A stretch of 64,000 bases of DNA from a virus: IMG/VR virus record IMGVR_UViG_3300042197_000820, positions 1 to 64,000 of that record; one strand, 5' to 3'. Below the pieces are notes generated by a model. The model saw only the letters and a list, made by a program, of their open reading frames with translations, made no database searches and was not told the DNA's origin. Of this stretch, positions 43,657 through 61,467 are shown piece by piece. Positions within the stretch are counted from its first letter, which is position 1. Each line of letters opens with the position of its first letter. The translations under genes and the position numbers were made by a program.

Positions 43657-43881
43657 TCACTTCCGATTCTGACGTAGTTTCTTCAGAACCTTTTCTCTAC
43701 GACGCTCTTTCCTCTTACGCTTATCGGAAGGCTTTTCGTACTCTAGAGAGCGGCGATACTCTTCGATGATTCCGCTTCTCTTAACTTTCTTCATAAACTT
43801 CTTGATTGCTGTTGTGATTGATTGACCTTCGCGCACCTCAACAGTAACATGTGCGGGTCGTGAACTATTATAACGCTTCAT
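43657..43881 (-). CDS. rpsU: phage-encoded ribosomal protein bS21
   Basis: VEVREGQSITTAIKKFMKKVKRSGIIEEYRR...YEKPSDKRKRK. Confidence 0.9.
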   Translation of the reverse strand: MKRYNSSRPAHVTVEVREGQSITTAIKKFMKKVKRSGIIEEYRRSLEYEKPSDKRKRKERRREKVLKKLRQNRK

Positions 43882-44761: not shown

Positions 44762-47050
44762 TCAACCTCTCAAAACTGTCTTGATACCGGCCAAAACAGA
44801 CCAGCGATTTAGTTCAACGGTTTCGCGCATCACAACACCGGCATCATCTAGGTAATCACTCAAGTAATCACTGATGGTCTCCATAGCATCGCGGATAATC
44901 TCAGGATCGATTGGCTGTTCACCATGAGCAGTATGACCTGTTTCTAGAATGTCGCGAAGGTCAGAAATAAAGAACTTATCTGTTGCTAGTTCTTTAGCCT
45001 TTGGTTGGTTCCTGAACTCTTTCTCGAAATCAACCTTGCCTTGCTTCATCTTTAGATAAAGTTCTTTACGTTGGTCAGTCGTCATCTTGAAGAAATCAAA
45101 CTTAGAACGTTCTCTCTGTGGATCTTCGGGAAGCCTCATTAGTAAGGCTTTCTCTTCTGGCGACAGAGCAGCAATGAACTCATCTGGCTTATCGAATAGT
45201 TGCTTGCGGCTGAACCTTAGAGTCTTACCGTCTTTGACTACTGTTGTATCTGAGCCAAACTCGATTACCATACGAGCAATCTTACCTCTGTTGTCACCGG
45301 GACCGGCAACATCTCGGTCCATTGCTGGACCGACTCTACCGGCTGCATCCATTGCAGCGCGAGCAGCGCGTTCGCCACCACCAGTTCTTGTTGTATCTGA
45401 TCTTTCTGCTGGGATAGCATCGGCAACGTTGCGTGGCTTTTCTTTCTTCTTCTTTTTCTTCTTTTTCTCAAGAAGATTTGCAATGTCGAATCCTTCTTTG
45501 ACTACGAAGCCTTTGTTCTCAAGTTCCTGCTTGATACGATTCGTAACGTCTTTGACAGCCCAACTTGGTAATCCCACATCACCACCCATCAGCTTATCGA
45601 CTAGATTCATGTCTTTTTTGCCTCTACCGATAAACTTATGTGGTCCCTTTCTGAAGATGTGGATTACTTCTCCATCACCACCAGACTTTTTGCCTCCACC
45701 GTCACCACCATCACCGCCGTCAGTAGGACCGGATCCGTCACCGTCTGTATCTGGAAGCTTTTTCTTGACTTTTGATGGATCTACGTCTTCCATTCTTTGC
45801 AGTAAACCGTCAAGTGTTGCTAGACGAGAATACTTCTGTCCATGCTTTCTTAGGAAGTATACTGCTGCACCTGAAGTTACCAAAGCAACTCCAACTGCTG
45901 GTAGAAGTACCGAAGCTGCTCCTAGTGCTTTAGCACCAATCATGGCTCCAATACCTGTTAGAGCAGTTCTCTTGAAGCGATGGCCGATGGTTTTAACAAC
46001 GGTTGTGGTGATGGTATCTGTAATATTAACCATCTTTTTGGGATCTACATCCCAAGGGATTTCTTTTCTTCCTTTGGCACCAAAAATCTTGGCCAACGAT
46101 TGTGAAGGGTCTTGTTGGAAGTTCTTCCAGTTATCTAACCACACAGATTGGTCCATTGCATCTCCTCTTCCAAGAGTGGCCAAGTCTTCATCGGTTAGTC
46201 CAAACTCCTTCATATCACTTAGAAGTTCTGATAGTGGAGTATTTGGCTTATAATGTTTTGCATCTCCGAAGAAGAACCTACCAAGTGCTTGTGTTGGACC
46301 TTCGCCGGGTTGAACCTGCAAAGTACGATTCAGACTTTGCTTGAACTCTTCTATAACAGATTGACGCATATCAATAATGTTGGTCTTCATGACTAGATTA
46401 TAGAACCAATCTGTATGCATCAACACACCGGCTACAATACCAGCTAGACCAGAAAGACCGAGCAGTTTTGGAGCCAAGGTAGAGCGAAGCTCTTCCATTG
46501 ACATGGTTTTCTTATCACCAGCTAGTGGACCAGTCTCTTCTGCTGGAACATCACCTTCTGCCTCGGACAATCTCTTGTATACACTCTCTAGTTCATAATC
46601 CATGTAATATTGCATCATCTTACGAAGATCTTTAATCATTTCGTTTGCAATAGCAGGATCTGTCTCGCCAGCTTCTGCGCTAGCAACTATACTATCATAA
46701 ATCTTGCCGATTTCCATTGTTTGTGCAAGGAACTCATCAGCACTCTTTTGATTAGGATATCCAGAAGCCTTCAAAGTTTTGCTAAGTTCAGAGAAAGCCT
46801 TATTAGAGGCTGCATCTGCTCTATCGATAATGGCTTGGATTTGCTTTTCCGCTGCATCACGCTTAGAACTTGGAAGCATCTTCCTGAGTGATGTTAGCTT
46901 AGCAAGACCATGCTTGATCGAATCCCAAACTCCTTCATCTACACGACCAGTATAAATCTTTTGTTTTACTGCCTTTTCTAGTAAGAAGTTTAGTTCTTTC
47001 TTGTATCTCGTCTCAAGTATAAGACGCTTTGATTCGGAAATCCTATTCAT
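44762..47050 (-). CDS. large hypothetical protein, probable internal head / ejection protein
   Basis: 762 aa with hydrophobic segments, Gly/Asp linker, poly-Lys run, C-terminal RWSVLAGIK. Confidence 0.7.
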   Translation of the reverse strand: MNRISESKRLILETRYKKELNFLLEKAVKQKIYTGRVDEGVWDSIKHGLAKLTSLRKMLPSSKRDAAEKQIQAIIDRADAASNKAFSELSKTLKASGYPNQKSADEFLAQTMEIGKIYDSIVASAEAGETDPAIANEMIKDLRKMMQYYMDYELESVYKRLSEAEGDVPAEETGPLAGDKKTMSMEELRSTLAPKLLGLSGLAGIVAGVLMHTDWFYNLVMKTNIIDMRQSVIEEFKQSLNRTLQVQPGEGPTQALGRFFFGDAKHYKPNTPLSELLSDMKEFGLTDEDLATLGRGDAMDQSVWLDNWKNFQQDPSQSLAKIFGAKGRKEIPWDVDPKKMVNITDTITTTVVKTIGHRFKRTALTGIGAMIGAKALGAASVLLPAVGVALVTSGAAVYFLRKHGQKYSRLATLDGLLQRMEDVDPSKVKKKLPDTDGDGSGPTDGGDGGDGGGKKSGGDGEVIHIFRKGPHKFIGRGKKDMNLVDKLMGGDVGLPSWAVKDVTNRIKQELENKGFVVKEGFDIANLLEKKKKKKKKEKPRNVADAIPAERSDTTRTGGGERAARAAMDAAGRVGPAMDRDVAGPGDNRGKIARMVIEFGSDTTVVKDGKTLRFSRKQLFDKPDEFIAALSPEEKALLMRLPEDPQRERSKFDFFKMTTDQRKELYLKMKQGKVDFEKEFRNQPKAKELATDKFFISDLRDILETGHTAHGEQPIDPEIIRDAMETISDYLSDYLDDAGVVMRETVELNRWSVLAGIKTVLRG

Positions 47051-47655
47051 TTTTTGCTCCCCAATAAATCATCCAACATGGAATCAATAGTAATTAGTTT
47101 ATTTGTGTTTCTTCTGCCTTCATACATCACATTATCCATGAAGGCTTTTGGTGTAGAAGGTTCAGATACAATGTCAAAACAAATAAGCTGAAAGTCGTCT
47201 TCTACGATTGTCTGGCCACCGCGATTAGACACGGAACCTAGACCGCGTGAAGAAATACCAATCTTGACACCATCGTTGACCAAGGCTCTGAGGGTCTGAC
47301 CGGATGGAGTAGAGAGAACCTTTACTTTACCCATAAGTGTTTTACCATCCCACCACATGTCTGTAACCATGTGCGAAGAGTTGCGAAGATTGACAACCGA
47401 ATCATCTGGGTGGTCCAGTTCTCCGACAGCACGGCGATCACGAACAACATCCATGTAGCTATCCACTTCTCTTTTTAGAATAGGGAATGGGTAGACACGA
47501 CCATTTCCGTTTAGTCTTTCTGCTTCGTGGCATTTGCCGACAAGATAAAGAGCTTTACCATCTGCCATTTGTCTTTTCTCGGATTCGGTGAGAACGTCGA
47601 GACACATCCCATCGGGACAAAGTTCATAGAACTCTTTTAGTATTTGTTTTGCCAT
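47047..47655 (-). CDS. prohead core protease (T4 gp21-like)
   Basis: NGNGRVYP, GELDHP, SHMV, TPSG, GISSRGLGS, DIVSEPS. Confidence 0.95.
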   Translation of the reverse strand: MAKQILKEFYELCPDGMCLDVLTESEKRQMADGKALYLVGKCHEAERLNGNGRVYPFPILKREVDSYMDVVRDRRAVGELDHPDDSVVNLRNSSHMVTDMWWDGKTLMGKVKVLSTPSGQTLRALVNDGVKIGISSRGLGSVSNRGGQTIVEDDFQLICFDIVSEPSTPKAFMDNVMYEGRRNTNKLITIDSMLDDLLGSKK

Positions 47656-47699
47656 TTTATACCTTTATGGTTATCAAGATAAATAGTTGTCTACTTCCC

Positions 47700-47735
47700 A
47701 AAAAAGAAAGCCACCCTGTTTGGCAGAGTGGCTTT
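47700..47735 (-). terminator. intrinsic terminator
   Basis: AAAGCCACTCTG...CAGGGTGGCTTT followed by CTTTTTT. Confidence 0.8.
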
Positions 47736-47762
47736 ATCGAACGCGGGCGCGACCCGCGTGAG

Positions 47763-47822
47763 TTAGCTACCGTTACAGCAGCGGCGAACTGGCTGAAGCA
47801 TCCACTTAGCAGTCATGCACAT
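47763..47822 (-). CDS. 19-aa Cys-rich peptide MCMTAKWMLQPVRRCCNGS
   Basis: Perfect AAGGAGGTGA SD a few nt before the ATG; followed by a GC hairpin and terminator. Confidence 0.55.
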   Translation of the reverse strand: MCMTAKWMLQPVRRCCNGS

Positions 47823-47825
47823 AAC

Positions 47826-48410
47826 TCACCTCCTTCTCTTGGATTCTTGTGTAATGCGGCGAACGATTGATTCTGCGATCTCTTCTTGGACATTAGCAAC
47901 CGGACCCTTCTCCCTAGCGAACTTAGAAGTAGAACGCGCCTCTCTAGTTGCTGCTCTTGCTTCCTTAGACAGTTCGGCTAGTTGGGCGGCAAAAGCAGTT
48001 AGCAAATCTGCAAACTGTTTGTTACCCTGAGCGCGGCTAGCATAACCGGCTAGTTCTCTTGTGGTATTCGTAGCAACTTTAACCGTCTTAGCTACGTCTG
48101 CTTTAAGCGAACCCATAGCAGCGGCATCGAGGACTTCACCACCTGCTTTTCCAAGCTTGTCAAGACCGGCAGCGGCGGCTTTACCGAAAGCCTCGTTTCC
48201 TCGTTCAATAGCCGAGATACCACGATTTAGTGCGCCATATGCTTTATCTCCAACAGCACCGGCTGCTCGTCCAACAGCACCGGCTGCTTTCCCGGCGACA
48301 CCAGCTAATCCTCTAGCCGCGCCTCCGATAGCACCAAAAAGTCCTTCTTCAATAGCAGTCTGTACTTCTTCAGCAATGATTGCCTTTAGTTGTGCTTCAG
48401 TGAGTTTCAT
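47826..48410 (-). CDS. Ala/Gly-rich hypothetical protein with MKLTEAQLKAIIAEE N-terminus
   Basis: 194-aa ORF, amphipathic, in head module. Confidence 0.7.
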   Translation of the reverse strand: MKLTEAQLKAIIAEEVQTAIEEGLFGAIGGAARGLAGVAGKAAGAVGRAAGAVGDKAYGALNRGISAIERGNEAFGKAAAAGLDKLGKAGGEVLDAAAMGSLKADVAKTVKVATNTTRELAGYASRAQGNKQFADLLTAFAAQLAELSKEARAATREARSTSKFAREKGPVANVQEEIAESIVRRITQESKRRR

Positions 48411-48742
48411 TATTTATCCCCTTTAATATCAACAGATTTATGAGTAAACCGTAAACCTTCGTCGTTTACTAACATACTAAGTAGGTATGAAGTTCCCGCT
48501 GAAGTCCAGCCACAAATGAAAAAGTTTGCAACTGACTGGTCAAAACTAAATAGTTCGGTATACGGAGAAAGTAAAAATAAAAACCATCCCGCATGGAATC
48601 CGAAACACAGTGGACAATGGAATAGTTTACCAAATCCACCTAACCATTCTTTTGATGGTCTTATCTTATTAAAAATAGAAGCATAAACAACAAGGTAAGT
48701 AAGCCCATAAGAGCAGAGAATAAACCAAGCAAGTTGTAGCAT
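48410..48742 (-). CDS. membrane protein (DUF1360-like, C-P-x-C)
   Basis: Likely start MLQLAWF; three hydrophobic segments; LFHCPLCFGFHAG. Confidence 0.65.
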   Translation of the reverse strand: MLQLAWFILCSYGLTYLVVYASIFNKIRPSKEWLGGFGKLFHCPLCFGFHAGWFLFLLSPYTELFSFDQSVANFFICGWTSAGTSYLLSMLVNDEGLRFTHKSVDIKGDK

Positions 48743-48752
48743 TTTTCTTCCA

Positions 48753-49298
48753 TTAATAAGTAAAGGATTGCCAGTAATAGGCATTACCATAAGTAAACGG
48801 TGAGCCGCCAACAGTACCTTTCTTCGAAGCTTGTGGGACTTCACCAAGATTGGTAGAGTCTTCATCTGTTGGGTCAGTAAACTTATCTGTCATCATTTCA
48901 TCGTATGCTTCTACAAACTCAAAGTAAGGCTTTTCATCCTCGATGAATCGATGAATGTTTAAAAGCAATAACTTGACAACATCAAACTTTTCTGATGGAT
49001 AGTATTTACATTCCATAGAATCGTATACGTTTCCACCTTGAATGGATTCAGGATTGACTATTCCTCTTTTAGCAAGATAGTGGAATAGTCTATTCTGGGC
49101 ACCATAGACATAATCATTCATTACGTCCTTGGCATAAGCAATAACCTTCTGAGTTTTTGGCTGAACGACAATATAGATGTCGGCGTGGTCGAATACCATT
49201 ACGTCATCATTTAGGCTTTTGGCAACCTTGAGATTGACGATTTCTTTTGGCTCGATCTTTTGTGGTGCGCCGGATCCTATCTTAATCGTTATTGCCAT
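48753..49298 (-). CDS. hypothetical protein
   Basis: 181-aa ORF in head module. Confidence 0.7.
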   Translation of the reverse strand: MAITIKIGSGAPQKIEPKEIVNLKVAKSLNDDVMVFDHADIYIVVQPKTQKVIAYAKDVMNDYVYGAQNRLFHYLAKRGIVNPESIQGGNVYDSMECKYYPSEKFDVVKLLLLNIHRFIEDEKPYFEFVEAYDEMMTDKFTDPTDEDSTNLGEVPQASKKGTVGGSPFTYGNAYYWQSFTY

Positions 49299-50106
49299 TC
49301 TCAGTGATCTCCTGTGCCAAAGCTTGCAACTTTAAGACTTTCTCTAGTACTTGCTCGTTGATTGGAGTTTTCCTAAACGACTCGATTAGCTGCATAACAG
49401 AGTTTAGTTTTTGAGTGATGTTTGGATCACCACCATTATAAGTAGTTATGGCTTCTTTTATTCTATGGATCTCATCGTTCAGACACATCTGAAACTGCAA
49501 ACCGCCGTCAGAGATTGACATAACATAACTTTCGATAAGCTTGCGTTGTGATTCATTTAGTGATTGATTGTACTTGGTATTGAAGTTTTGGACAACTGTG
49601 CGATAGACCAAGTTATCAATAGGTTGCATCTCTGACTTCTTTTGTTGAGTTGGACGCTCGACCAACGTACCGATCAGCTTTCTCTCAAGAAGAACTTTTT
49701 GTTTTACGTCTGTATCCCCACCAAAAATCTGTGAGATTGTGGCAAGTGTCTTGTAGTTTGGAACAAACGTATCGAATGCATCTTGACCAATAGTTTTGTT
49801 GATCCAGTTAATCACTTTTGTTTGCTCGTTGAACAGTTCCTTTTCATCAAGTTTCTGATAAGCATTATAACTTTCTTGGATTAGCCTTGATGCTGTAAAT
49901 GAATCTAAGCTATTTGTCTCGTACAGGTTCTTGTATAGAGCCAGTTCATTTGCTAATGGTTTTCCTGCTCTAAAGAAAGCCGAAAAGACTTCTTTGAGTT
50001 GGGTTATCATTGATTTGTTCTGTTGTAATGAAGCAATAGCAAGTTGCTTTACAAGTAACTCATAAAGAAAAGCGGTGTTTCTTTTCTTATTGTGGCGCAA
50101 TCTCAT
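49282..50106 (-). CDS. conserved hypothetical protein adjacent to portal
   Basis: H.K.RNT.FLYELL N-terminus, NYK.LA.I, FN.KY..L. Confidence 0.75.
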   Translation of the reverse strand: MRLRHNKKRNTAFLYELLVKQLAIASLQQNKSMITQLKEVFSAFFRAGKPLANELALYKNLYETNSLDSFTASRLIQESYNAYQKLDEKELFNEQTKVINWINKTIGQDAFDTFVPNYKTLATISQIFGGDTDVKQKVLLERKLIGTLVERPTQQKKSEMQPIDNLVYRTVVQNFNTKYNQSLNESQRKLIESYVMSISDGGLQFQMCLNDEIHRIKEAITTYNGGDPNITQKLNSVMQLIESFRKTPINEQVLEKVLKLQALAQEITENGNND

Positions 50107-52130
50107 TTCTTTTTCTCCAATGATTCTAATAGACGATTGACTTCTTTTTGGGTTCGGAAGACTTCAGCTTCTTCTTCTAAATAAGTAGTTGTTGAGCCTT
50201 CATAGATTTTAGCAGAAGCTAAACCAGATAGTTCTTTTCTACCGGGATTCATAGTTCTTGCTGTGATCCCTAAAGCTGCTTCTGGGAATGCTACGGATGT
50301 GCGGTTTTTCTGTCTTGCAACAGAACCCTTATTTCTACCACCCGGTTTCTGACCGTAGTAGTAGGATTTTCCGCTTGGCCCACGACGGAGGTATTCTTTA
50401 CGCCCGTGGAGGCCGACTCTATAGGCCCCTTCTTCGTCTTCCTGTAATGGGGCTTCCCCACCGGGGGCACCACCGGGAGCAGCGAGAAGAGGTTCTTCGG
50501 CACCAGCTTCTTCAGGTGCGGGTGCTTCTGCGGCGGCTTCAGGAGCGGCCTCGGCACCAGCCTCGGCACCAGCTTCCGCTCCCAAATCTCCAAGGCCACC
50601 ACCAGCTTCTCCACCAAGCTCGCCTCCAAGACCAGCACCTAGACCACCGCCGCCACCGAGACCAGCAGCCTCTTCTTGCATCTTCTCAGCGACAGCGTTG
50701 ATCTGTGCGTCGAACTTGCGATCATAGAAGATCTCGCGTTGATTGCGAAGGAACTCTTCTTCTGACATGTTGAACAGCTTCTCAGCAATCCAACGGCGTG
50801 AGAAGTAGCCTTCGGTTGCTTTGCTAGCAACGTCAAACTTGCTTGACCAGTGTTCTAGTTCTTGCATTTCTGCAATCTTGGATGGATTATTTAGGCTAAG
50901 AGAGAAGTTGAGTAGATCATCCCCTCTGTAGCCAATAGTATAAAGATGGATAATACCAATCTTTTCTAGTTCTGATACGACAATCCTTTGTAGTCTTTGG
51001 ATTGTTCTAGCAAAGCGAATGTCTTTTTGAGCTAGCGTAGTCTTATCTTCTTCTGCACCTTCTGCTCTTGAGATGTAAGAAGCTGGAATCTTGAGGGCAG
51101 AGAACAACTTGTCGCGAAGATACTTAACGTCATCAATGTCACCAGTGAAAGTACCACCAGCCAAAGAAGTGATTTCTGTTGCTGAGCCACCACGAACAGG
51201 AATATAGTAATCCTCTTCTACCGAAAGTGGATTGTAACGAAGATCGACGCGGCCTGTGGTATCGTCCAAGATAGTGTTACGCTTCATTGAAGTAATAACC
51301 TTTTGAACATATTGTTCTACTTCGTTTGGAGGAATACCACCAACGTCAATCTTGAATACACGACGTTCTGGGGCACGAACAATACGGTAAGCCATCATAG
51401 CATCTTCTAGAAGTGTTAGCTGACGCCAAATACGACGAGCAGCTTCTAGGACTGATGTACCATAAGGAGCGTACTTGTCATTTCCAAGAATGCGGAAGTG
51501 AGCGACCTGCCAGTTTTCGAATGTCATACCAGCAGAGTTCCATTGGAACTGAACGTAGTTTGGGTTTGTTTTGTCTTCACCTTCTAATCTTTCTACTTCT
51601 TGTGGAGGCAGACCGATTGCGCTTGTGATACCTTGGTGATCATCGATATCGAGGTATAGAAAGAAATCGCCATACTTGCACATTGTACGGCACCAACCAA
51701 AAAGATTGAAGTTGGCATTTAGCACATTATGGTAGAGAGATTGTAAAACCCCTTTGATTTCTTCGTTGCGGCACTTGATGTTCAACATTGGTTGCAGAGC
51801 AGAGTGTGTTGTCATTTCGTCTGCATAGATGTCAAGTGCAGATGCAATCTCAGGTGTGTATTCCATTTGATCAAAGTCAACATAACGCTCTGAGCGATTA
51901 TGGTTGATCATGATAGCATTCTGCATATTTGAGAATGCGTATAGTTGTGAACGCTTGAACTGCTGTCCCGAAGCTGATCGGAACTGCGATGCGTACTTGT
52001 CCATCAAGGAACGACGCAATCTTCTAGTCGATTGTGTACGATAGTTTACGAGAGGACCAGAGAATAATCTTGTTAATCTCTGGAATAGTTCTGATCCCGG
52101 ATCTCTTGGGTTTTTGTCTTGCTTTGCCAT
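50103..52130 (-). CDS. portal protein (T4 gp20-like)
   Basis: PEIASALDIYADE, QLTLLEDAMMAYRIVRAPERRVFKIDVG, EEDYYIPVRG, ALKIP. Confidence 0.95.
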   Translation of the reverse strand: MAKQDKNPRDPGSELFQRLTRLFSGPLVNYRTQSTRRLRRSLMDKYASQFRSASGQQFKRSQLYAFSNMQNAIMINHNRSERYVDFDQMEYTPEIASALDIYADEMTTHSALQPMLNIKCRNEEIKGVLQSLYHNVLNANFNLFGWCRTMCKYGDFFLYLDIDDHQGITSAIGLPPQEVERLEGEDKTNPNYVQFQWNSAGMTFENWQVAHFRILGNDKYAPYGTSVLEAARRIWRQLTLLEDAMMAYRIVRAPERRVFKIDVGGIPPNEVEQYVQKVITSMKRNTILDDTTGRVDLRYNPLSVEEDYYIPVRGGSATEITSLAGGTFTGDIDDVKYLRDKLFSALKIPASYISRAEGAEEDKTTLAQKDIRFARTIQRLQRIVVSELEKIGIIHLYTIGYRGDDLLNFSLSLNNPSKIAEMQELEHWSSKFDVASKATEGYFSRRWIAEKLFNMSEEEFLRNQREIFYDRKFDAQINAVAEKMQEEAAGLGGGGGLGAGLGGELGGEAGGGLGDLGAEAGAEAGAEAAPEAAAEAPAPEEAGAEEPLLAAPGGAPGGEAPLQEDEEGAYRVGLHGRKEYLRRGPSGKSYYYGQKPGGRNKGSVARQKNRTSVAFPEAALGITARTMNPGRKELSGLASAKIYEGSTTTYLEEEAEVFRTQKEVNRLLESLEKKK

Positions 52131-52133
52131 TTT

Positions 52134-53720
52134 CTATCCCTTTAGTAACCAACTGAAGTTTCTTTGTTCCAACGCTCTGTCCCAAGTACTTTGTTTGAAT
52201 CCATTTATGTTATGTCCCCTCATACCGGGGATGGAAGTAACAAAGACGCTATTTGCGGAATACATAGAATCTACGATTGCTTTTTTATACTCTATTTCTC
52301 TTTGATTTACTGTTAGTGCTGTATCCTTGACCCAGCAGCTAATCGCTAATGACATAACTAGATCGTCGTGGTATGATCTCATCGCTTGGGCACGATTATC
52401 ATTCCAGATGAATGTTTTGAACTCAGCAGCCAATCTAGAGGAATACGTCTTGATAGATTTGTTTCTAATGAACTCTTCTAGCTTGGCTACAATCAAAGGT
52501 CTTGTCTTAGACGAGGTAGTAAATCCTGCTATTACTCTATCGGAATCAAACGTTTCGCTGGAGTCAACGAAATCATGTGTTCCTTTAGCAGAGTAGTATA
52601 TGTTAGGATAACCCATTTCCTTTAGCTTTTCAAGTACAGAAATGCCTAAAGAGTTATTTTCTACAACTAATAAACAGTTGCCGAACTCTCTACCCGTATT
52701 ATATAGGAGATAAGCAAAATCTCCAAGAGTTGGCTTTCCTTGGTACTCACCAATAACTTCCATAGTTTCTAGTTTTGTTAAGTGGAATACTGAGTTGTCG
52801 GCACCGTCACCGCGAGCAACGTCTGCCACCAGTAGATAAGTGGCAGTAGAATCGTACTGTTCCCACATCCATAGGTTTCTGTCAAAGCCTGTACGGTATA
52901 CTGGCTCACGGATTTCAGAATCAATCCTAGCTAGTTGTTCAGATGGAATGACAGTTTCGCCCGAAGAGTTGAATGAACATTCTAACTCCTGAGCAATCTG
53001 TCTAGCAGACATGTTTCTTGTTTCTTTTTCGAACCAAGCTTGATCTCTGTCTGGATGTACATTCCAAGGTAGATTGATTGGATGGAAATCATTCTTTCCT
53101 ATCTCGGCTTCGGAATAGGTCTTATGAAACCAGTTGCCAACACCATTGGGGCTTGACAAGGCAATGCAACGACCACCAGTTGACAATGTAGGGTATAGAC
53201 CGGTCCATAGTTCGTCTAGACCTTCAACGAATGCAGCCTCGTCAATAACAAGCAATGACAAAGCTTCTGAACGACCGGCATCACCAGACGTAGAAGAAGC
53301 CTTTACTTGAGAACCATTCGTGAGTTCGAACGAGCTTCTGTTATCAGCTTTGATGTCAGAAATCCTCAACCACTTGGGAAGATTCTGCATGATGTTCTTT
53401 ACTTTCTTGACCAAGTTAGCAGCAACAGTAAACTTGGTAGCAACTACTAGAACGTTTTTATCTCTATGAAACAATAAAAGCCAAGCAATGTAGGCTGCGG
53501 TAACCGTCGAGAAACCTAACTGTCTGGCTTTTAGTACAATGTTGAATCGATAATCAGTGAAGTCTTGAATAGCTTCTTTCTGAAAATCGTAGAGGCTGAA
53601 TGGGATAAGACCTTTTTGGGGGTGTGAAATCTTACAATAGCTGTTTATGAAATAGACCGCATCTTTACCGGATTTGACTATTTCTTTTAGTGTTTCCTGC
53701 TTTGTAAGGACTTGGCTCAT
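52134..53720 (-). CDS. terminase large subunit (gp17-like)
   Basis: LYDFQ, KARQLGFST, LLVIDEAAF, SSPNG, QELECSF, DVARG, VENN, HDDLVMS. Confidence 0.95.
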   Translation of the reverse strand: MSQVLTKQETLKEIVKSGKDAVYFINSYCKISHPQKGLIPFSLYDFQKEAIQDFTDYRFNIVLKARQLGFSTVTAAYIAWLLLFHRDKNVLVVATKFTVAANLVKKVKNIMQNLPKWLRISDIKADNRSSFELTNGSQVKASSTSGDAGRSEALSLLVIDEAAFVEGLDELWTGLYPTLSTGGRCIALSSPNGVGNWFHKTYSEAEIGKNDFHPINLPWNVHPDRDQAWFEKETRNMSARQIAQELECSFNSSGETVIPSEQLARIDSEIREPVYRTGFDRNLWMWEQYDSTATYLLVADVARGDGADNSVFHLTKLETMEVIGEYQGKPTLGDFAYLLYNTGREFGNCLLVVENNSLGISVLEKLKEMGYPNIYYSAKGTHDFVDSSETFDSDRVIAGFTTSSKTRPLIVAKLEEFIRNKSIKTYSSRLAAEFKTFIWNDNRAQAMRSYHDDLVMSLAISCWVKDTALTVNQREIEYKKAIVDSMYSANSVFVTSIPGMRGHNINGFKQSTWDRALEQRNFSWLLKG

Positions 53721-54259
53721 GAGTCTCGTCTTGTATCATTCTTCGGACGAGTCCCTAAGCCTCCTTGTTCTAAGAAGGAGCGGAACTTTGCATCGACTGA
53801 ATCTTTGCTCTCGCCCTTTACTGGATCGGTGCCTTGTGCCCCACCAATCTTGTAGGCTCTGTGTGCTGTAACCCAGTAGCGAATACTAGAAGTGTTTTCT
53901 GCACGGACTTTTACTTCGTCGAGTGGTGTCAGAGTTAGAGAACCCTTAGCCTTTGAGTATCCGCTGTATTCTTTCTTGATGAAGTTGGCAATGTCTTGGA
54001 TTCGTTGTTCAATCTCTGATTCTAGACTACCACTATAAATCTCTTTTAGTAAGATCTCAGAGTGGTATTTGATGATCAGTTGATCACCGTGAAACTGTAC
54101 GCCGAAACCATCCATAACTCTTTTATCGAGTAAGGGGTTACCTTCTTCGCGTCTGAGACCTATCTTGACTGGTTCGCCTTTCTTATTTCTGGCACCATCA
54201 TAGCCTTGCTCAGCGACGATTTGCGAGATTGTTTGTACTACTTCAAGTATTGTTGCCAT
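53717..54259 (-). CDS. hypothetical protein
   Basis: 180-aa ORF coupled to terL. Confidence 0.7.
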   Translation of the reverse strand: MATILEVVQTISQIVAEQGYDGARNKKGEPVKIGLRREEGNPLLDKRVMDGFGVQFHGDQLIIKYHSEILLKEIYSGSLESEIEQRIQDIANFIKKEYSGYSKAKGSLTLTPLDEVKVRAENTSSIRYWVTAHRAYKIGGAQGTDPVKGESKDSVDAKFRSFLEQGGLGTRPKNDTRRDS

Positions 54260-54650
54260 TTTTATTGGGCCTCCACCCAGATTTCCATCTTTCTTCTCTA
54301 TCTTCTACCCACTGTACATAGCAAGTGTAACAACAATCGTACTTCTTAATACAGAAATCGTCTTTGGCATCATTTTCTGCTTTGTTACAGATTGGGCAAG
54401 GGATAAAAGAACTTTCTCTAGTAAGTAGTTTTTCGGTTATAAAAAACCCGTCAGCAAAGACTTTTCGCTCTTTGTCCCAAGTATACTGGTCTTTCTCTTT
54501 GAGAAGCTTTAACTGTTCTAGGTAGATCTCTTCCTTTTCATCGTTCCAATAGGCTCGTAAGTTATCTACAGCTTCTTGTCCATACTTCTTGCCTATCATC
54601 TGCTCATATCGAGCTATTTCATTCCAATCTAACTTTGGTTGATTACTCAT
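54243..54650 (-). CDS. hypothetical Zn-binding protein
   Basis: CPIC...CC..C.VQWVE.REERW..GWRP. Confidence 0.7.
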   Translation of the reverse strand: MSNQPKLDWNEIARYEQMIGKKYGQEAVDNLRAYWNDEKEEIYLEQLKLLKEKDQYTWDKERKVFADGFFITEKLLTRESSFIPCPICNKAENDAKDDFCIKKYDCCYTCYVQWVEDREERWKSGWRPNKNGNNT

Positions 54651-55114
54651 TGTTGTTTATTCACAGCCATATTAATACCGATAGCTGTACCACCACCAAC
54701 GATGATACCTCCCAAAACACCAGCTACAATCAAGGCTGGAATATCAGTGCGTTCTATCTTGGATAGCTTCTTATTTAGGACATCAATCTGTTCTTGCTTG
54801 GAGGATAGCTGTACAAGCAGCTTATCTCGTTCTGCATCAGCAGAGATTTTATCGAGTTCTACTCTCTTGTCGCATTCTGTTTTTAGTAAAGCAGTCTGAC
54901 GTTCAAGATCTAAACTGTATTGTTGTTCTCTTAGTTCCTTATCGGAGATAAGGATAGCAGTCGCTAAGTCATCAAAGCATGTTGCTTGAAATGGAACTCT
55001 TCCATCTTTTGGTACGAGGACAAACTTCCCCTTTTGTTCTTCGCCATGTGCATTGGCGGATAGTAGTAATAGTATTAAGACAAAGACAATCTTATTCCAC
55101 ATGTTCGAATCCAA
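54647..55114 (-). CDS. exported coiled-coil membrane protein, possible spanin component
   Basis: Signal peptide, coiled coil, C-terminal Gly-rich TM segment. Confidence 0.5.
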   Translation of the reverse strand: MDSNMWNKIVFVLILLLLSANAHGEEQKGKFVLVPKDGRVPFQATCFDDLATAILISDKELREQQYSLDLERQTALLKTECDKRVELDKISADAERDKLLVQLSSKQEQIDVLNKKLSKIERTDIPALIVAGVLGGIIVGGGTAIGINMAVNKQQ

Positions 55115-55529
55115 ATATATTTGTTATTATAGAAGCCACTTCTTCTGGCTTGTCGGTTCTTTTCTTGACTATCTCCTTTACTCTCTTATCCTTCTTTTTA
55201 GAAAGATCCTTGAGTTTCTTCTGATAGTCTTTTTCGATCTTTGTTATTTGAGCTTGATACTTGACAATAGCTTCTTCTCGCTTCTTGATTTCTTCTTTAT
55301 GAACTTCTTGAAGCTTATTAATCTCTTCACCCTGTATCTTGATTAGCTCTTGATACATTTCATTATTATAACTTCTTTGATTCTTAATGGCAATAGAAAA
55401 TCCTATAATCAATCCGATTATAAGAAGTTCACGCCAATATCTGATTATCAAGTCTAGAAAGTACTTGAAATCAAACTTCTTCAGAAGTTGAACGACCGCC
55501 GCGTAGCTTGACGATAGAATCGATAACAC
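55092..55529 (-). CDS. i-spanin-like protein (N-terminal TM + coiled coil)
   Basis: LLIIGLIIGFSIAI followed by a long coiled coil; start uncertain. Confidence 0.5.
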   Translation of the reverse strand: MLSILSSSYAAVVQLLKKFDFKYFLDLIIRYWRELLIIGLIIGFSIAIKNQRSYNNEMYQELIKIQGEEINKLQEVHKEEIKKREEAIVKYQAQITKIEKDYQKKLKDLSKKKDKRVKEIVKKRTDKPEEVASIITNIFGFEHVE

Positions 55530-55680
55530 TTTGTGTCCCTATGTAAAGGCCGCTGATTAGAACCCAATCAGAGCTAGAAAGAAAGCCGATACCGGCTAAG
55601 ACGGTTGCGGTGGTCCAAACCAATAGCTTTCTAGATACTAGCTTGTTCAGACCCCAATCAATAAATGCTTTTTGTACCAT
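55471..55680 (-). CDS. holin-like small membrane protein
   Basis: SRKLLVW, two TM segments, YIG.Q..ID; likely start MVQKA. Confidence 0.6.
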   Translation of the reverse strand: MVQKAFIDWGLNKLVSRKLLVWTTATVLAGIGFLSSSDWVLISGLYIGTQSVIDSIVKLRGGRSTSEEV

Positions 55681-55703
55681 ATTCACACCTCTAATATAAA
55701 TAG

Positions 55704-58700
55704 TCATTGATTTACGAAAGCAAAACCGTCTTTATTGCCGATTTCTATAGTCATATCGACCACATCTTTCAAACTGTCCAAGTGGGAGATAACTAGAATA
55801 GTTTTGAACTGAGTCTTCAGAAGATCTAATAGTTGTGTGAATGTTTGCAAGTGGTTCTCGTCCAATGCGGTACCCGGCTCATCGAGAATCATGATGTCCG
55901 ACTTTGGAAGATTAGAAACTTGCAGTAGAGCCAATCGGATAGCCATAGCAGCCATAGTCTTTTCGGCACCGGAAGCCATAGAGAGAGGACGAGGATCTTG
56001 ATCAATGTGCTTGATCATGATATCTAGCTTATCACCCTCTTCTTCGAAGAACACGTTAAACTCAGTCAAGTTAGAAAGAATCTTGGTTATTTCTTCGTTG
56101 ATGATTGGAAGCTGCTTCTTGATAATGTCATATGCGATACCATTCGAATGCATACACCGCATGAATAGTTCATAAGCACTAAACTCTGTCCTAAGTGCGT
56201 GAAGTTCATCTTTCTGGTTTGTGAGCATTTCTAGCTTTTGTTCAGCGGATCCAATCTTGCGGTGAATAAGAGTCAAACGATCAGTACAATCATTTAGAGA
56301 CTTCTTAGCATCTTTATGAGCAATCTTAAGTCGGTTGAGAGTAACCAATAATCCTTGAGCATTCTTGATTTGCTCCTTTGTTTGTTCATAAAGAAGTTCT
56401 TTCTCTCGCAACGACTCTAGATCAGCGTTGACCTTTCGTAACTCAAACTGACCGCGTTCAACATGGAAATCTAGATTCTTGATCTCACCAAGAAGCTGTT
56501 CTTTCTTGGCCACAATCGAAGTGTACTTTTCCAAATCGGCTTGGATAGAATCTGGCTTTGCCTCTGCGATCTTTTCTTGTAGAGAGGTAGCTTGTTCTGA
56601 CTTCATTTGTATAGATTCAGATGCTTCAGTCGCATCACGAATAAACTTACACTTTGGGAACTGCGTACCGCAGGGAATCCCATCTAATAGAGAAGTCTTA
56701 CTAGAAGCTAGCTTGATTTCCCTTTCGATTGTAGTTAGTTGTTCTTGAAGAACTTTGACGTTTTCTCTGCGAACAATCAGTCCTTGGTAATCATAAGACT
56801 CTAAGAATGTATGAATCTTTTCCAATAGTGCAAGATTATCAGCGATCTTAGTCTGATTCTCCATAATCTGTCCGTCTGTTGTGAGGGCTAGTAGCGAATA
56901 CTTAGAAATAAGGTTGCGTAGCTCAGCACCGTCGATGACTTCAGTGGAAGAAGCCTTGATTTGCTCTTCAACCGCCTTTATCTCAGTTTCTATCTCCAGA
57001 ACTCTTTGTTCCAACAACTTGCATTTCTCAAGCATAACTGTTAGCTCAGCTTCGCTATCAGAAAGTTCGGAATGCGCTACTGCAATCTCAGAGTCGAAGT
57101 TTCTCCCCTCTAGACGACGTAAGGCACCCTTAAGATCAGAGCTATCGTCTTTTGCTAACCTAAACTTCTTTTCGAAGATTTCTAGATCCAAGAACTTTGC
57201 AATGATTTCCTTTCTCTTGGTGCTTCCTTCCCTCACAAATGCTAGACCATCTAGCTGGCTAGACATAGAAGTGTTTAGGAAGTCATCGATTGTTCCGAAA
57301 ACACGACGAATATTATGGTCTGTTTCGACACGCGAAACTCCATTCATAGATTCCTTGGTATCAGAAATAGTGCATTCCTTTACGAAGTCAAGTTCTACTT
57401 TAGCTTCCTCAACAACTTCAGTTTTTGTCTTCTTCTTGTACTTTGTAAGGCTTCTTTCAATCGAGAAGATATCAGTATTGACTGCAATCTTGACCAAGCA
57501 GGAAGCTGAAAGCTTCTGCTGGTTAATCACATTAATGTTCTTCCTTTCGTTTTTGGAAGTTGTGTTGAAGATAGTGAATAGCAAGGAATCGATAATGCTT
57601 GACTTACCTGAGAAGTTCTTGCCGAAAATACCGACAATACCAGACAGACTTTCAAAATCAATCCGATTCTTCTCACCATAGTTGAACAGATTATCCCATT
57701 CAAGAGACTTGATTTGCCAGTTGATGTTACGACCAACTTCTTCTGTCTCTTCGACAATAGCTGAATACTTCTTGTTCAGTTCTAGAACCTTTTGGATAAC
57801 TTCTTCGGTACACTCGTAATCCTTTAGATATTCACGAATGAACTTTTCTAAGATTGCAGGATCACGAAGATTCTCTTTAGGAACATTTGTGATAGCTGTG
57901 GAACCCAATCCTCGCTTGTTATCCGCACGGGACAGAAAGGTAACAGATTCTGGACTAAACTTATGCTTTGCTAACTCCACAGCACGACTCATCTGCTGCA
58001 CCGTGAGATTGTAGTCAGAAGCTAATCTTACTCTAGCTCCGTTCGGAACGTTTGTATTCTTTGGTAGTTGACCGGTAGAAGTAAGATTGATTGTGACAAA
58101 CGGCTTTGGATTTGCAACTTGGATGTGGCTGCAATCAAAATCGTCTTTGCCACGAATATCCCAAAGCAAATAGCCCTTATCGTTTGTCTCGCCAAAGTTC
58201 TGCTGAATAGTGGAACCGGGGTAGCGCACGCGGCCCGCTGTATCCACTATTTGATTGGTCTTGTGAATATCACCAAGAAAAGCGAAATCGTGATCACTAA
58301 AAATATCGATACCATGATCTCCTCCTTGCATCGTCCAACCAATGTCGGTCTGGACTCCACCGATAGCACCGTGATAGAGGGCAATGTTGATCTTCGATGG
58401 ATCACTTGGTTTTACCCACTTATCTTCATCAAATACCGAAAGAACATTCAGCGTAACTAGTTCATTCAGTTGTACTTCGCCCGAGTTCTTCAGAAGATGA
58501 AGATTAGAATGCCCCAATGCCTGGGCGATGGGAGTAATCGCATCTTGACGGTTTGAGTTTTTTAGATTACCATCGTGGTTTCCGAGGATTACATACGTTG
58601 GTGCAATGTCGGCTAGATTAGAAAGGAAATCACTAGCCAACTCAAAAAACTCTGGTGATAACTGCGTCTTAGTATGCGCGATATCACCACAATGTACAAT

Positions 58701-58820
58701 GTAATCTACTTTCTGTTCTTTTAGTTTCGAGTACAGATCTTGGAATGCTGCCTTATACTCAAAATGATACTTATAGTTTCGGATGTGGGTATCCGAAATG
58801 TGGGCAATACGAACGCTCAC
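55704..58820 (-). CDS. fused SbcD(Mre11)-SbcC(Rad50) recombination nuclease/ATPase (gp47-gp46-like)
   Basis: SDTH, GDIAH, GNHD, LGDIH phosphoesterase; GKNFSGKSS Walker A, coiled coil with C...CKF hook, SGAE signature, ILDEP, ISH. Confidence 0.93.
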   Translation of the reverse strand: MSVRIAHISDTHIRNYKYHFEYKAAFQDLYSKLKEQKVDYIVHCGDIAHTKTQLSPEFFELASDFLSNLADIAPTYVILGNHDGNLKNSNRQDAITPIAQALGHSNLHLLKNSGEVQLNELVTLNVLSVFDEDKWVKPSDPSKINIALYHGAIGGVQTDIGWTMQGGDHGIDIFSDHDFAFLGDIHKTNQIVDTAGRVRYPGSTIQQNFGETNDKGYLLWDIRGKDDFDCSHIQVANPKPFVTINLTSTGQLPKNTNVPNGARVRLASDYNLTVQQMSRAVELAKHKFSPESVTFLSRADNKRGLGSTAITNVPKENLRDPAILEKFIREYLKDYECTEEVIQKVLELNKKYSAIVEETEEVGRNINWQIKSLEWDNLFNYGEKNRIDFESLSGIVGIFGKNFSGKSSIIDSLLFTIFNTTSKNERKNINVINQQKLSASCLVKIAVNTDIFSIERSLTKYKKKTKTEVVEEAKVELDFVKECTISDTKESMNGVSRVETDHNIRRVFGTIDDFLNTSMSSQLDGLAFVREGSTKRKEIIAKFLDLEIFEKKFRLAKDDSSDLKGALRRLEGRNFDSEIAVAHSELSDSEAELTVMLEKCKLLEQRVLEIETEIKAVEEQIKASSTEVIDGAELRNLISKYSLLALTTDGQIMENQTKIADNLALLEKIHTFLESYDYQGLIVRRENVKVLQEQLTTIEREIKLASSKTSLLDGIPCGTQFPKCKFIRDATEASESIQMKSEQATSLQEKIAEAKPDSIQADLEKYTSIVAKKEQLLGEIKNLDFHVERGQFELRKVNADLESLREKELLYEQTKEQIKNAQGLLVTLNRLKIAHKDAKKSLNDCTDRLTLIHRKIGSAEQKLEMLTNQKDELHALRTEFSAYELFMRCMHSNGIAYDIIKKQLPIINEEITKILSNLTEFNVFFEEEGDKLDIMIKHIDQDPRPLSMASGAEKTMAAMAIRLALLQVSNLPKSDIMILDEPGTALDENHLQTFTQLLDLLKTQFKTILVISHLDSLKDVVDMTIEIGNKDGFAFVNQ

Positions 58821-58842
58821 ACGAACTCCAACTTACGATCTT

Positions 58843-58871
58843 ATTATAACGCGCAGTAGTCAGACGGTCAA
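58843..58871 (-). promoter_or_regulatory. sigma70-like promoter
   Basis: TTGACC-17nt-TATAAT. Confidence 0.8.
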
Positions 58872-58883
58872 GTCAAAAAGATG

Positions 58884-59423
58884 TCACTTAGCGCGACGAG
58901 CCTTACTAGCTTCTATGGCACCGATCTGGGCTAAGGCTTTCTTTTTGCTTGGATGAGACCCAAGCTTTTTCTTTCCTTCCGAATCGTATACGTTCCACTC
59001 ATCGTCTTCGTGTTTTAGCATTTCGTCCAACTCGATTTCGATAGCCCCAGCGTGGCCACCGGCATCACGTTTAGCTAACTCAATACGGTCAGATAGATAA
59101 TGTTTGACTGTACTGAGATAGTCCGAAGCTTTTGCAATCTTAGACTGAATCCAAGCAGGGAGTTGGTCAGTATTCTTCAGCATATCGGTAAGGTCGCAAG
59201 CATACCTAGAAGCTTTGAGAAGTTCCAAACGAGCCATTTCTCCTTCATAATCTGGATCTCCAAGCATGTCGGGTGGAGGCAGTTCTTCACCGTGGTAGTT
59301 CACAAGCTCGACACTTTCCGGTTCTTGTGTGACTTCCATACCCATTTCATCCATGACTTCTTGCAAAGTAGGACCAAGCTCTTCTAACATTAGCTTTTTG
59401 AGCTTTTCATTTGATAACTTCAT
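58884..59423 (-). CDS. hypothetical protein with MKLSNEKLKKLMLEE N-terminus
   Basis: EGEMA...LPAWIQSKI...YL and GKKKLGSH...A.AQ..AIE..K modules seen in large-phage ORFs. Confidence 0.7.
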   Translation of the reverse strand: MKLSNEKLKKLMLEELGPTLQEVMDEMGMEVTQEPESVELVNYHGEELPPPDMLGDPDYEGEMARLELLKASRYACDLTDMLKNTDQLPAWIQSKIAKASDYLSTVKHYLSDRIELAKRDAGGHAGAIEIELDEMLKHEDDEWNVYDSEGKKKLGSHPSKKKALAQIGAIEASKARRAK

Positions 59424-59442
59424 GTTTTCTCCTATAGCTTAG

Positions 59443-60369
59443 TTAGAAACTAAACATTTTCGTAAGTAAATAGTTTGACTGATCGATAAGTGAGGCTTCT
59501 TTCTTTCTCTTTTGGAACTCTTGTTTTGTCATTTCACCAACATCGTTGTAGCCGTCAACATCAACCATGTACACAGGATTATCATAAGCTAGCAACATTT
59601 CGAGAATGTCCATTTCTTTCTTCTTAGCATCACCATCCAGCGCAAGATAAACCGTCGCATTACGCTTGATTATCTCTTGGAATAGACGAGAGTTCTCAGT
59701 CAGTGTAGATCCAAGAAGCGGAACTGCATTATCGGCCTTGATTGCGTCGAATACGCCCTCAACCAGAGTTATGGGTCGATCCCAATCTAAGTAAAGCTCG
59801 TTAAAGATAATGTTCTTTGATGCTTGCGGATTCTTATACTTTGGAAAAGCATTCGTAAATGTACGAGAAATAAAGTAGTTGACCCACCCATCGTTATTAA
59901 ACGAAGGTACGATAATACGGTCGTAATAGGGTCCAGAAGGGCACCATCCGATCTTCCACTTCAGTATGTCTTCTCTCGTCAGGCCGCGCTCATAGAGGTA
60001 TTTGAGAGGCTTTTCAGAGCCGTCTATAAGGGTTCTGTTGGCAAGAGATTCGAACTCTTCAGGCAGGTTGATCAATGTCTCCAGTTGAGGCTTCTTATCC
60101 TGAAAAAGCTCTTCGAACTTAGAAATGTCCACATCGTCTTCATGATAAGACCAGTGTTGCTTGGCGTCAAACGACCCAAACAACTTGACCAATCTACCGA
60201 TACTTTTGCCCGTTGTATTACAAATCCAGCATTTATAAACGTTCTTATCAAAGTTTACGCTTAGCTTATGCTTATGGTGCTTGCAAAATGGGCACTTATA
60301 CAGATACTCTTCGCTCGACCGTCGTGGGAGTCCGAGAACGTCTGTCAGGATTTGTTGTTTTGTTCGCAT
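59443..60369 (-). CDS. DNA primase (Zn finger + TOPRIM)
   Basis: CPFC.H...CWIC, YL.ERG, RIIVP, KYKNP, VEGVFDAI, LDGD, DVG. Confidence 0.92.
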   Translation of the reverse strand: MRTKQQILTDVLGLPRRSSEEYLYKCPFCKHHKHKLSVNFDKNVYKCWICNTTGKSIGRLVKLFGSFDAKQHWSYHEDDVDISKFEELFQDKKPQLETLINLPEEFESLANRTLIDGSEKPLKYLYERGLTREDILKWKIGWCPSGPYYDRIIVPSFNNDGWVNYFISRTFTNAFPKYKNPQASKNIIFNELYLDWDRPITLVEGVFDAIKADNAVPLLGSTLTENSRLFQEIIKRNATVYLALDGDAKKKEMDILEMLLAYDNPVYMVDVDGYNDVGEMTKQEFQKRKKEASLIDQSNYLLTKMFSF

Positions 60370-60878
60370 AAGAAACCTGCTTTAGCAATGATGATTGAGT
60401 CCGCTTTGTCATACGACAGAGGAGCGATAGAACCCGTTCTCGTTAAAGATAACACGAACGATGGTTCATTGTCAATCAGATGCTTCAGCACGACTTCTTT
60501 AGCTTTGACGCCCTTTTCTATTTTGATGCCGCATATCTTTCTAGCTGATGTGGCAGCAATGTATTCAGGTTTGTGGCCGAAAACCTCAAAACAAATCCAA
60601 CTTACCGTACCGTTGAATGAGGATAGGGTTGACAAAGTTTTTGCAGATGAGAAGCCGGTGCTGAATGATTGCAGCGATTTCTCAATGTAAACCTTTTTGA
60701 TTTTGTATTTCTTTGATAACTCAATGATCTGCTTCTTTACATGTGATGCTTTATCAAAGATACAATCAAACTTCTTTTTGTTGCGAAAATCCCAAGCATC
60801 ATTGGTTATGATTTTACCAGAATCGTCTATGATTGTAAAGCCTGTGATGCTTGTCGAAATGTCTAATCCAAGGATCAG
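60345..60878 (-). CDS. RuvC-like Holliday junction resolvase (probable CTG start)
   Basis: Frame extends upstream of the track ORF: (M)ILGLDISTSITG...VYIEKSL...LSSFNG...D.ADS.IIA. Confidence 0.85.
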   Translation of the reverse strand: MILGLDISTSITGFTIIDDSGKIITNDAWDFRNKKKFDCIFDKASHVKKQIIELSKKYKIKKVYIEKSLQSFSTGFSSAKTLSTLSSFNGTVSWICFEVFGHKPEYIAATSARKICGIKIEKGVKAKEVVLKHLIDNEPSFVLSLTRTGSIAPLSYDKADSIIIAKAGFLCEQNNKS

Positions 60879-61444
60879 GGGACACCACGCACTGGATTCA
60901 CATCCACATAATCGACTTGTACCATTCCTAGGTCAGTGAAATGAGTTACCAACTCGGGATGATTATCAACAATCTTTGCAAGTGTATCAACGAAGCTTTG
61001 CTGTGCCGGTGTAAACCCCTCAGTTGGCTTACCATCCCTCATTTTAGCAAGTTTAACTTGCAAATCCATAGTAGCCTCTTCGGCATTTACTTTCGATTTC
61101 AAGTCTGGCTTGCTGTTAATATAATGTTGTAGTGCCCCTAATAAAACTTTCGGTGAAGCCGATTCAGATTTAGCAACTTGCGAAGTTGTTGGTGGGGCTG
61201 GTTCTGCTGCTTTAGCCGATCCGCCGCCCATTGCTAGACTTGCGGCTAAACCTGCTGTTGCTAACCCCCGACCTAGTTTCCCCAAGATACCTTCTTCTAG
61301 ATTCTCTTCATACGCATCTAACATATTTCTAAAAGATTTGTCTAGTTCAGCAAGTTCTTCAGGAGAAAGAGACATACCAGAAGCTTGTTCTGAAACTACA
61401 AACTTAGTCCAGTTTTCCATTATTAGTTTCATAGAAGCCATCAT
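60875..61444 (-). CDS. hypothetical protein with internal signal-peptide-like segment
   Basis: MKLIMENW N-terminus; LEE-GILGKLGRGLATAGLAASLAMGGGSAKA; ACTATTTA upstream. Confidence 0.7.
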   Translation of the reverse strand: MMASMKLIMENWTKFVVSEQASGMSLSPEELAELDKSFRNMLDAYEENLEEGILGKLGRGLATAGLAASLAMGGGSAKAAEPAPPTTSQVAKSESASPKVLLGALQHYINSKPDLKSKVNAEEATMDLQVKLAKMRDGKPTEGFTPAQQSFVDTLAKIVDNHPELVTHFTDLGMVQVDYVDVNPVRGVP

Positions 61445-61467
61445 TTTCCCTCTCTATAAATAGTATT

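Follow-up and report, generated by a model that had tools for sequence, protein, structure and literature searches.

Within the first 64 kb (positions 1 to 64,000, hereafter the window) of the 128,019-bp IMG/VR viral record IMGVR_UViG_3300042197_000820, the genome of an uncultured T4-like myophage of about 128 kb, we found three proteins of 194, 762 and 189 residues (p194, p762 and p189; Table 1) whose N-terminal segments end in a hydrophobic-x-Glu motif followed by glycine. These are probably prohead-internal proteins trimmed by the gp21-type protease of the phage, a reading to which, from sequence and by analogy with T4, we assign a probability of roughly 0.6, jointly with the placement of p194 as a basic helical protein of the T4 ‘internal protein’ type; p189 belongs to this set less surely than p194 and p762. 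The pro-segments look like T4-style targeting propeptides that would be removed at the Glu-Gly junction (E↓G, with the arrow marking the putative cut). We favor this reading because the junction is conserved, p194 carries the end of a shared leader exactly at its junction, an L-x-E site of the capsid protein aligns with that of T4, and p762 shares a C-terminal tail with the scaffold.

Directly visible are the sequences themselves, the family to which the protease belongs, a junction kept in relatives, and a leader and a tail that recur on other proteins; from these we infer a course of targeting, cleavage, retention and ejection. The N-terminal propeptide of p194, p762 and p189 would direct each protein into the assembling prohead core, whereupon the gp21-type protease would cleave after the Glu of the hydrophobic-x-Glu motif, where the conserved Glu-Gly pair interrupts the helix. 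p762 would additionally be held in the prohead by its scaffold-like C-terminal tail, and the mature proteins would probably stay with the DNA and exit the head with it. A preceding reading of the same DNA (the original prediction) had joined two claims, namely that a gp21-type protease cleaves these pro-segments and that the cleavage arms the proteins for action on membranes. Conservation and the T4 model argue for the first; the second is not supported, or weakly so.

Conservation of the Glu-Gly junction in a T4-type head module

The record has a GC content of 0.40 and nearly all of its genes on the minus strand, and the 40.6-53.7 kb interval is a T4-type head module, with a portal, a gp21-type protease and a Gp23 capsid protein recognized by Pfam and PHROG, in a gene order that parallels T4 20-67-68-21-22-23. 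The gp21 homolog named in the original prediction was borne out by its Pfam and PHROG matches (Table 1) as well as by a phmmer match to T4 gp21 itself (1e-24), in which the GELxHP, SSRGLGS and D.V..PS blocks align. The N-terminal propeptide region of the capsid protein contains LTE↓GVV, LLE↓GLS and LKE↓STS, and the L-K-E↓S falls in the same alignment column as the L-T-E↓A of T4 gp23, which we take to be the actual cut position in T4. According to published accounts, gp21 cuts after a Glu at a short motif. The lineage is common in metagenomes, where at least 595 viral stretches carry a gene related to that of the protease; the best 80 of these were kept and are referred to below as the related loci.

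All three open reading frames (ORFs) lie on the minus strand with the quoted residues exactly in place, the junctions reading ...AIEE↓GLFGAIGGAARGLAGVAGK in p194, ...NLEE↓GILGKLGRGLATAGLAASLAMGGGSAKA in p189 and ...RVDE↓GVWDSIKHGLAKL in p762. Conservation of the junction had been set beforehand as the refutation test for the claim, and the junction proved to be kept: 18/18 database relatives of p194 (including the window’s own entry), from an unbiased search, have I[ED]E↓GLF; 10/10 relatives of p762, at 35-99% identity, have [VI]DE↓G[VLM]W despite several unrelated versions of the pro-segment; and 3/3 relatives of p189 have [LM][ED]E↓GI. In the p762 alignment (A4), which reaches down to 26% identity, E39, G40, W42 and K46 are among only 35 invariant columns. 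The residue following GLF is again Gly in 15 of the 18 p194 relatives, the remaining three having GLFDKI, and the extended GLFG..GGA is well kept in the close clade.

A genome-wide motif count gave a divided answer. The bare [ILV]xEG occurs 34 times against 34.3 ± 5.7 in 300 shuffles, a chance level on which we rejected enrichment of this motif as such. In contrast, five of the 116 proteins have the full [ILV]xEG[ILVFM][ILVFWM] starting within their first 60 residues, where 0.47 would be expected, and 1 of 2000 shuffles attains that number. The five are the major capsid protein, p145 (a conserved head-module protein), p762 and p194, all four in the head module, and p189. Since the codons differ at the four junctions, the likeness is at the protein level and selection acts on the protein.

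Leaders, tails and the putative cargo behind them

The pro-segment of p194 is a specimen of a leader, here termed class A, which heads 76 of the 1211 unique ORFs in the related loci and three in the present genome; a second leader, class B, heads 15 ORFs in the related loci and p189. The class-A consensus, drawn from 68 unique and otherwise unrelated ORFs, is MK[IL]TKxQLKQIIKEEL..V[LM]xE, with L, M, I or V at position 20 in 47/68, Glu at position 22 in 38/68 and a collapse of conservation past position 22. The I20-E21-E22 of p194 falls on this consensus leader end, whereas the pro-segment of p762 belongs to neither class. A full-text literature search for the leader strings, with supplements outside its reach, returned no phage paper, and no printed description of the leaders is known to us.

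In the relatives, the slots flanking the protease gene are hypervariable and occupied by leader-tagged genes. Leaders stand there in front of a pentapeptide-repeat protein (1.3e-33; L068:9435-9971), an AAA_33 kinase-like protein (2.1e-13; L059:9253-9999), an RNase_T-type exonuclease (4.7e-6; L059:375-1511) and a ParB-like nuclease (4.7e-4; L037:704-1732). These leader-headed proteins are candidate delivered anti-defense proteins.

None of p194, p189 and p762 belongs to a Pfam or PHROG family. The p194 family is a mosaic in which both ends persist, the leader with its GLFG start and the basic C-terminal tail, while the middle is swapped; in six relatives the match covers no more than 13-17% of the query, at 73-93% identity. 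The tail of p194 (47826-47880, minus strand; IAESIVRRITQESKRRR) contains I-A-E↓S and may be a second processing or targeting signal. Net charge separates the parts of the protein, the pro-segment having -3 and the mature part +11 in p194; in 10/10 family sequences, six of which were selected for carrying the motif, pro-segments range from -2 to -6 and mature parts from +1 to +11. The AlphaFold2 (AF2) model of p194 is all-helical (predicted local distance difference test, pLDDT, 63.5) with a helix break at residues 22-23, and that of p189 (pLDDT 54.5) has one at residues 52-53; both models are too uncertain for fold comparison. The predicted complex of the scaffold (alignment A3) with residues 1-60 of p194 (alignment A2) scored 0.00, which speaks neither for nor against binding.

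The start of p762 overlaps the stop codon of the protease gene (ATGA). Behind its junction it has two membrane-span-like segments (Table 1), at least one of which is present in 10/10 relatives and two in 8/10, the position of the first being conserved. Its C-terminus ends in a W..LAGIK motif (RWSVLAGIK...) that in this genome is found otherwise only at the C-terminus of the scaffold (42426-42452, minus strand), to which p762 has no similarity beyond this tail. All nine matches of the motif in the related loci are likewise C-terminal, on scaffolds and on large, cargo-like, leader-bearing proteins such as a 452-residue class-B protein (L027:846-2204). An ESM Atlas search with p762 gave no usable match; the Atlas model has a pLDDT of 0.40, and its structural neighbors, with TM-scores (template modeling) of at most 0.20, are meaningless.

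The genomic position of p194 and the tail of p762 also bear on a different explanation, in which both would be structural assembly proteins rather than delivered cargo. On this view, p194 would stand in for the T4 core proteins gp67/gp68, and p762 would be a membrane-anchored scaffold accessory tying the nascent prohead to the inner membrane; cleavage would take both apart and release the prohead, their fragments passing out of the head. p194 does sit at the position of T4 genes 67/68, between portal and protease, p762 combines the scaffold tail with two hydrophobic segments, and the operon also includes the gene of a conserved small membrane protein. In T4, moreover, the cited passages describe proheads that form on the inner membrane and come free once mature (PMC9026906, PMC5694885). 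Yet relatives of p762 and p194 occur in just 5/80 and 3/80 of the related loci, respectively, unlike essential core genes, and the p194 family is basic as against the net charge of -51 of the scaffold. Similarity to the T4 core proteins is also lacking within the comparison made, a phmmer search of nine head-module proteins against six T4 proteins (gp67, gp68, gp21, gp22, gp23 and gp24): only the protease with gp21 and the capsid protein with gp23/gp24 matched, p194, p145 and p762 matched none, and gp22, gp67 and gp68 had no similarity at E < 0.01, the best T4 match of the scaffold being gp67 at 0.019. On balance we consider it unlikely that p194 and p762 are assembly proteins of this kind.

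p145 has relatives in 71/80 related loci and an LKE↓GLL site; it begins with a helix that resembles a leader (MNxxELKKxLKPLIKE...) and has a junction, [FL]E[ED]G, that is nearly conserved. We rejected it as a strict E↓G substrate, many relatives carrying D, S or N instead of E or G; the cargo leaders may be imitations of this protein, which would then belong to the core. A tblastn search with p194 and p145 against 50,697 cultured-phage records found no match.

Several facts tell against protease-trimmed, prohead-internal proteins as the reading of p194, p762 and p189. The phage has no close cultured relative, the best identities being ~48% for the capsid protein and below 47% for the protease, and the completeness of its record is estimated at 70%. 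Gly occupies class-A position 23 in 9/68 sequences, on which count a Gly after the cut was rejected as a general leader rule; [ILVFM]xEG in the first 90 residues is but slightly commoner in class-A ORFs (17/76) than in the others (169/1120). Positions 20-22 of the class-A protein at 13075-13614 lack [ILVM]xE, and a weak relative of p189 (L056, 27% identity) has Ser in the position of the Glu. Finally, six rows of the p194-family alignment (A2) were chosen for the motif, which makes its apparent invariance there partly circular.

The inconstant Gly, together with the helix breaks at the junctions of the two low-confidence AF2 models, would also suit an uncleaved Glu-Gly pair that acts as a structural hinge, capping one helix and starting another, with the leaders serving for recognition by a modifying enzyme, control of expression or recombination. 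This we consider very improbable: the leader end fits the known motif of the protease, the motif-bearing proteins cluster in the head module, the differing junction codons point to selection on the protein, and a search for Radical_SAM enzymes in the genome record, at its estimated 70% completeness, had no match.

The mature N-terminus and host membranes

Trimming by the protease would leave a mature chain whose start was the centerpiece of the original prediction. According to this, the proteins are packaged inert and cleavage bares a membrane-active N-terminus, fusion-peptide-like in p194 and a short amphipathic helix in p189 and p762, that acts on host membranes after ejection. The mature start is indeed among the best-conserved parts of these proteins, GLF persisting in 18/18 p194 relatives though the middle is swapped, and G40, W42 and K46 being invariant in p762. 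The amphipathic helix turned out to be moderate: the 18-residue hydrophobic moments of the three, 0.31-0.35, are ordinary, at the 75th-83rd percentile of the phage proteome; the 11-residue moment of p189 stands at the 94th. Taken together, the 26 unique post-junction N-termini of the related loci exceed the controls, with a mean 11-residue moment of 0.377 against 0.277 for the background and 0.258 for G-hydrophobic-hydrophobic windows elsewhere (Mann-Whitney p ~1e-5, a test that overstates significance because many of the 26 are homologous and not independent). By interfacial hydrophobicity, the first 10 mature residues of p194 rank in the top 4.4% of 10-residue windows, those of p189 in the top 14% and those of p762 in the top 14.5%.

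Further properties of the proteins fit this scenario poorly. Neither p194 nor p189 has a 19-residue window at a Kyte-Doolittle mean of 1.6 or above (maxima 1.07 and 1.11). The two conserved membrane-span-like segments of p762, which might be counted in its favor, are internal, starting 150 residues past the junction rather than at the new N-terminus. Amphipathic helices are common in any helical bundle, and p194 is predicted to be all-helical. The pro-segment of p762 is basic and offers no acidic mask; the pro-segments are charged, as claimed, with no uniform sign (-3 in p194, -7 in p189 and +4 in p762). As for the likeness of p194 to the influenza HA2 fusion peptide, phmmer with p194 as query over the complete set of PDB chains (E <=10) retrieved no haemagglutinin and a single unrelated chain (E 1.1); the likeness rests on 6-8 residues of a Gly/Ala-rich, low-complexity segment and is convergent at best. 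A published precedent for a membrane-contacting N-terminus does exist in SPN3US gp47 (PMC5694885, section 16; see below). Weighing these points, we regard the full scheme of inert packaging, arming and membrane attack as quite unlikely.

By the sequence comparisons, selection clearly acts on the first residues of the mature chain, and the post-cut motif, G-hydrophobic-[F/W/L]-[D/G]-x-hydrophobic-K, would appear to serve a separate function. Membrane binding is one candidate role; others are a place on the prime side of the protease site and contacts with the core or with DNA. A more specific version of the first option has the conserved start, or the GLFG..GGA of p194, as a latent membrane-targeting or fusion-type peptide that is active only as a free N-terminus; the protease would then arm unrelated head-borne proteins, which after ejection would attach to the host inner membrane or enter it, p762 entering by way of its two hydrophobic segments. 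We think this improbable. A membrane signal in this place would reveal how a phage with a contractile tail brings the proteins it delivers to the host membrane; a motif that is part of only the protease site or core-binding site would define the sorting code of an abundant marine/aquatic phage group and supply a tag for loading foreign proteins into such capsids.

Neighboring genes and comparison with known systems

The features discussed here are collected in Table 1. Directly upstream of p194, the gene of a small hydrophobic protein with CPxC motifs has a stop that overlaps the start of p194. Its relatives occupy the pre-protease slot in most of the 80 related loci; it belongs to no Pfam or PHROG family and could be a membrane factor for prohead assembly. 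Further along the module, a gene for ribosomal protein S21 lies between those of p136 and the scaffold. The start of p189 is preceded (61445-61470, minus strand) by ACTATTTA and then by a GAGAGGG ribosome-binding site. Beyond it are two adjoining structural-looking genes (61468-62631 and 62648-63751, both on the minus strand; 387 and 367 residues) with similar C-termini, neither of which has a Pfam or PHROG family.

Table 1. Features of the window, with positions in the whole 64,000-nucleotide stretch
Feature	Position	Strand	Remarks
Terminase	head module, 40.6-53.7 kb		listed before the portal
Portal protein (T4 gp20 family)	50103-52130	-	Pfam Portal_T4, 2.6e-78
Two conserved genes without assigned role	head module		274 and 181 aa; listed between portal and small membrane protein
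Small membrane protein	48410-48865	-	ORF
p194	47826-48410	-	194 aa; class-A leader; basic, Ala/Gly/Lys-rich; just upstream of the protease gene
p194 residues 1-22, class-A leader MKLTEAQLKAIIAEEVQTAIEE	48345-48410	-	ends I20-E21-E22, then G23
gp21-type prohead protease	47047-47655	-	Pfam Peptidase_S77, 2.2e-30; PHROG head maturation protease (phrog_207), 2.5e-54
p762	44762-47050	-	762 aa; large accessory head-module protein
p762 residues 1-39, basic pro-segment	46934-47050	-	net +4; ends V37-D38-E39, then G40
p762 residues 192-211, first membrane-span-like segment	46418-46477	-	Kyte-Doolittle 19-residue mean 1.75
p762 residues 370-400, second membrane-span-like segment	45851-45943	-	Kyte-Doolittle 19-residue mean 1.96
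p762 residues 749-762, C-terminal tail RWSVLAGIKTVLRG	44765-44806	-	scaffold C-terminal motif
p145	44323-44760	-	conserved head-module protein
p136	head module		listed after p145
Ribosomal protein S21	43657-43881	-	Pfam Ribosomal_S21, 1.2e-14
Scaffold-like protein	42426-43592	-	net charge -51; C-terminus ...DYWKKLAGIK
Major capsid protein (Gp23 family)	40660-42402	-	Pfam Gp23, 9.4e-70
Class-A leader protein (MKLTKAQLKKIILEEV...)	13075-13614	-	phrog_3636 ‘DNA binding protein’, 5e-5
Class-A leader protein (MKLSNEKLKKLMLEEL...TLQE↓V)	58884-59423	-	phrog_3684, 3.4e-11, C-terminal part
p189	60875-61444	-	189 aa; class-B leader (MKLIMENW...); late structural operon
p189 residues 1-51, acidic pro-segment	61292-61444	-	net -7; ends L49-E50-E51, then G52

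The known systems compared are three groups of head-carried proteins and one class of membrane-active peptides. The peptides, class I fusion peptides such as that of influenza HA2 and antimicrobial peptides released from propeptides, share with the present proteins the creation by proteolysis of an N-terminal Gly followed by hydrophobic residues, in a segment that is Gly/Ala-rich in p194. They differ in having no detectable sequence relationship to them, and the moments found here are ordinary.

Podophages such as P22 (gp7/gp16/gp20), T7 (gp14-16) and N4 are short-tailed and need a conduit. A contractile T4-like tail is not known to have such a need, and the ejection proteins of these podophages are not known to be armed by a prohead protease. 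In the published accounts cited, these ejection proteins insert into the host envelope (PMC8402733, PMC13434306). They resemble the present proteins in being carried in the head and entering the envelope on infection, as p762 with its two hydrophobic segments could do, and differ from them in that no homology was found.

In head proteins of the Salmonella giant phage SPN3US and of phiKZ and 201phi2-1, a gp21-related protease also cuts after Glu, and the propeptide is inferred to target the prohead (PMC5694885; PMC9026906 section 3.2). Their motif, however, is A/S/G-x-E as against the L/I/V-x-E found here, and they belong to another phage lineage. In SPN3US gp47, a predicted transmembrane domain stands at the start of the mature fragment, and the authors speculate on its contact with the host membrane (PMC5694885, section 16). 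The idea of a cleavage-exposed, membrane-contacting N-terminus on an ejected head protein is already in print as a speculation. Unlike gp47, the new N-termini here are Gly/Ala-rich or amphipathic and not predicted membrane spans; p762 alone has a predicted span in its mature protein, and not at the new N-terminus.

T4 itself offers the textbook example of proteins that travel with phage DNA and disarm the host, namely its internal proteins. The cited passages describe a conserved targeting sequence that stands in front of diverse, often basic proteins and loads them into the core, to be removed by gp21 (PMC9026906 section 2.6, PMC3012670). For IPIII, 10 N-terminal residues are enough for targeting, processing hinges on residues 8 and 10, and an Asp instead of the Glu before the cut blocks processing in T4 (PMC9026906 section 2.6, which also describes the work of Mullaney and Black 1996 on this sequence); Alt is trimmed at both ends (PMC5694885, cited passage). 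With IPI, IPII, IPIII and Alt, the present system shares a short N-terminal propeptide with hydrophobic-x-Glu at its end, borne by proteins that are diverse, evolve fast and are often basic, a gp21-family protease with a gp20/gp23 head in one genome, and variable cargo behind a conserved leader; further, p762, like Alt, is large with signals at both ends. On the features that can be tested in silico, all of which are present, it would work like the T4 system of targeting sequence and internal proteins. The differences lie in the leader, of about 22 residues (class A) or longer here against 10 in T4, in a second conserved motif after the cut, and in p762 with its membrane-span-like segments and scaffold-type tail; in addition, the present phage is known from sequence alone. 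Three elements seem new, namely the conserved post-cut motif on unrelated cargo, the mosaic p194 family with conserved ends and a swapped middle, and the combination of propeptide, hydrophobic segments and scaffold tail in p762. More generally, this lineage appears to run a T4-like delivery system with a longer leader and a far wider range of cargo, extending to kinase-like, exonuclease, pentapeptide-repeat and nuclease domains.

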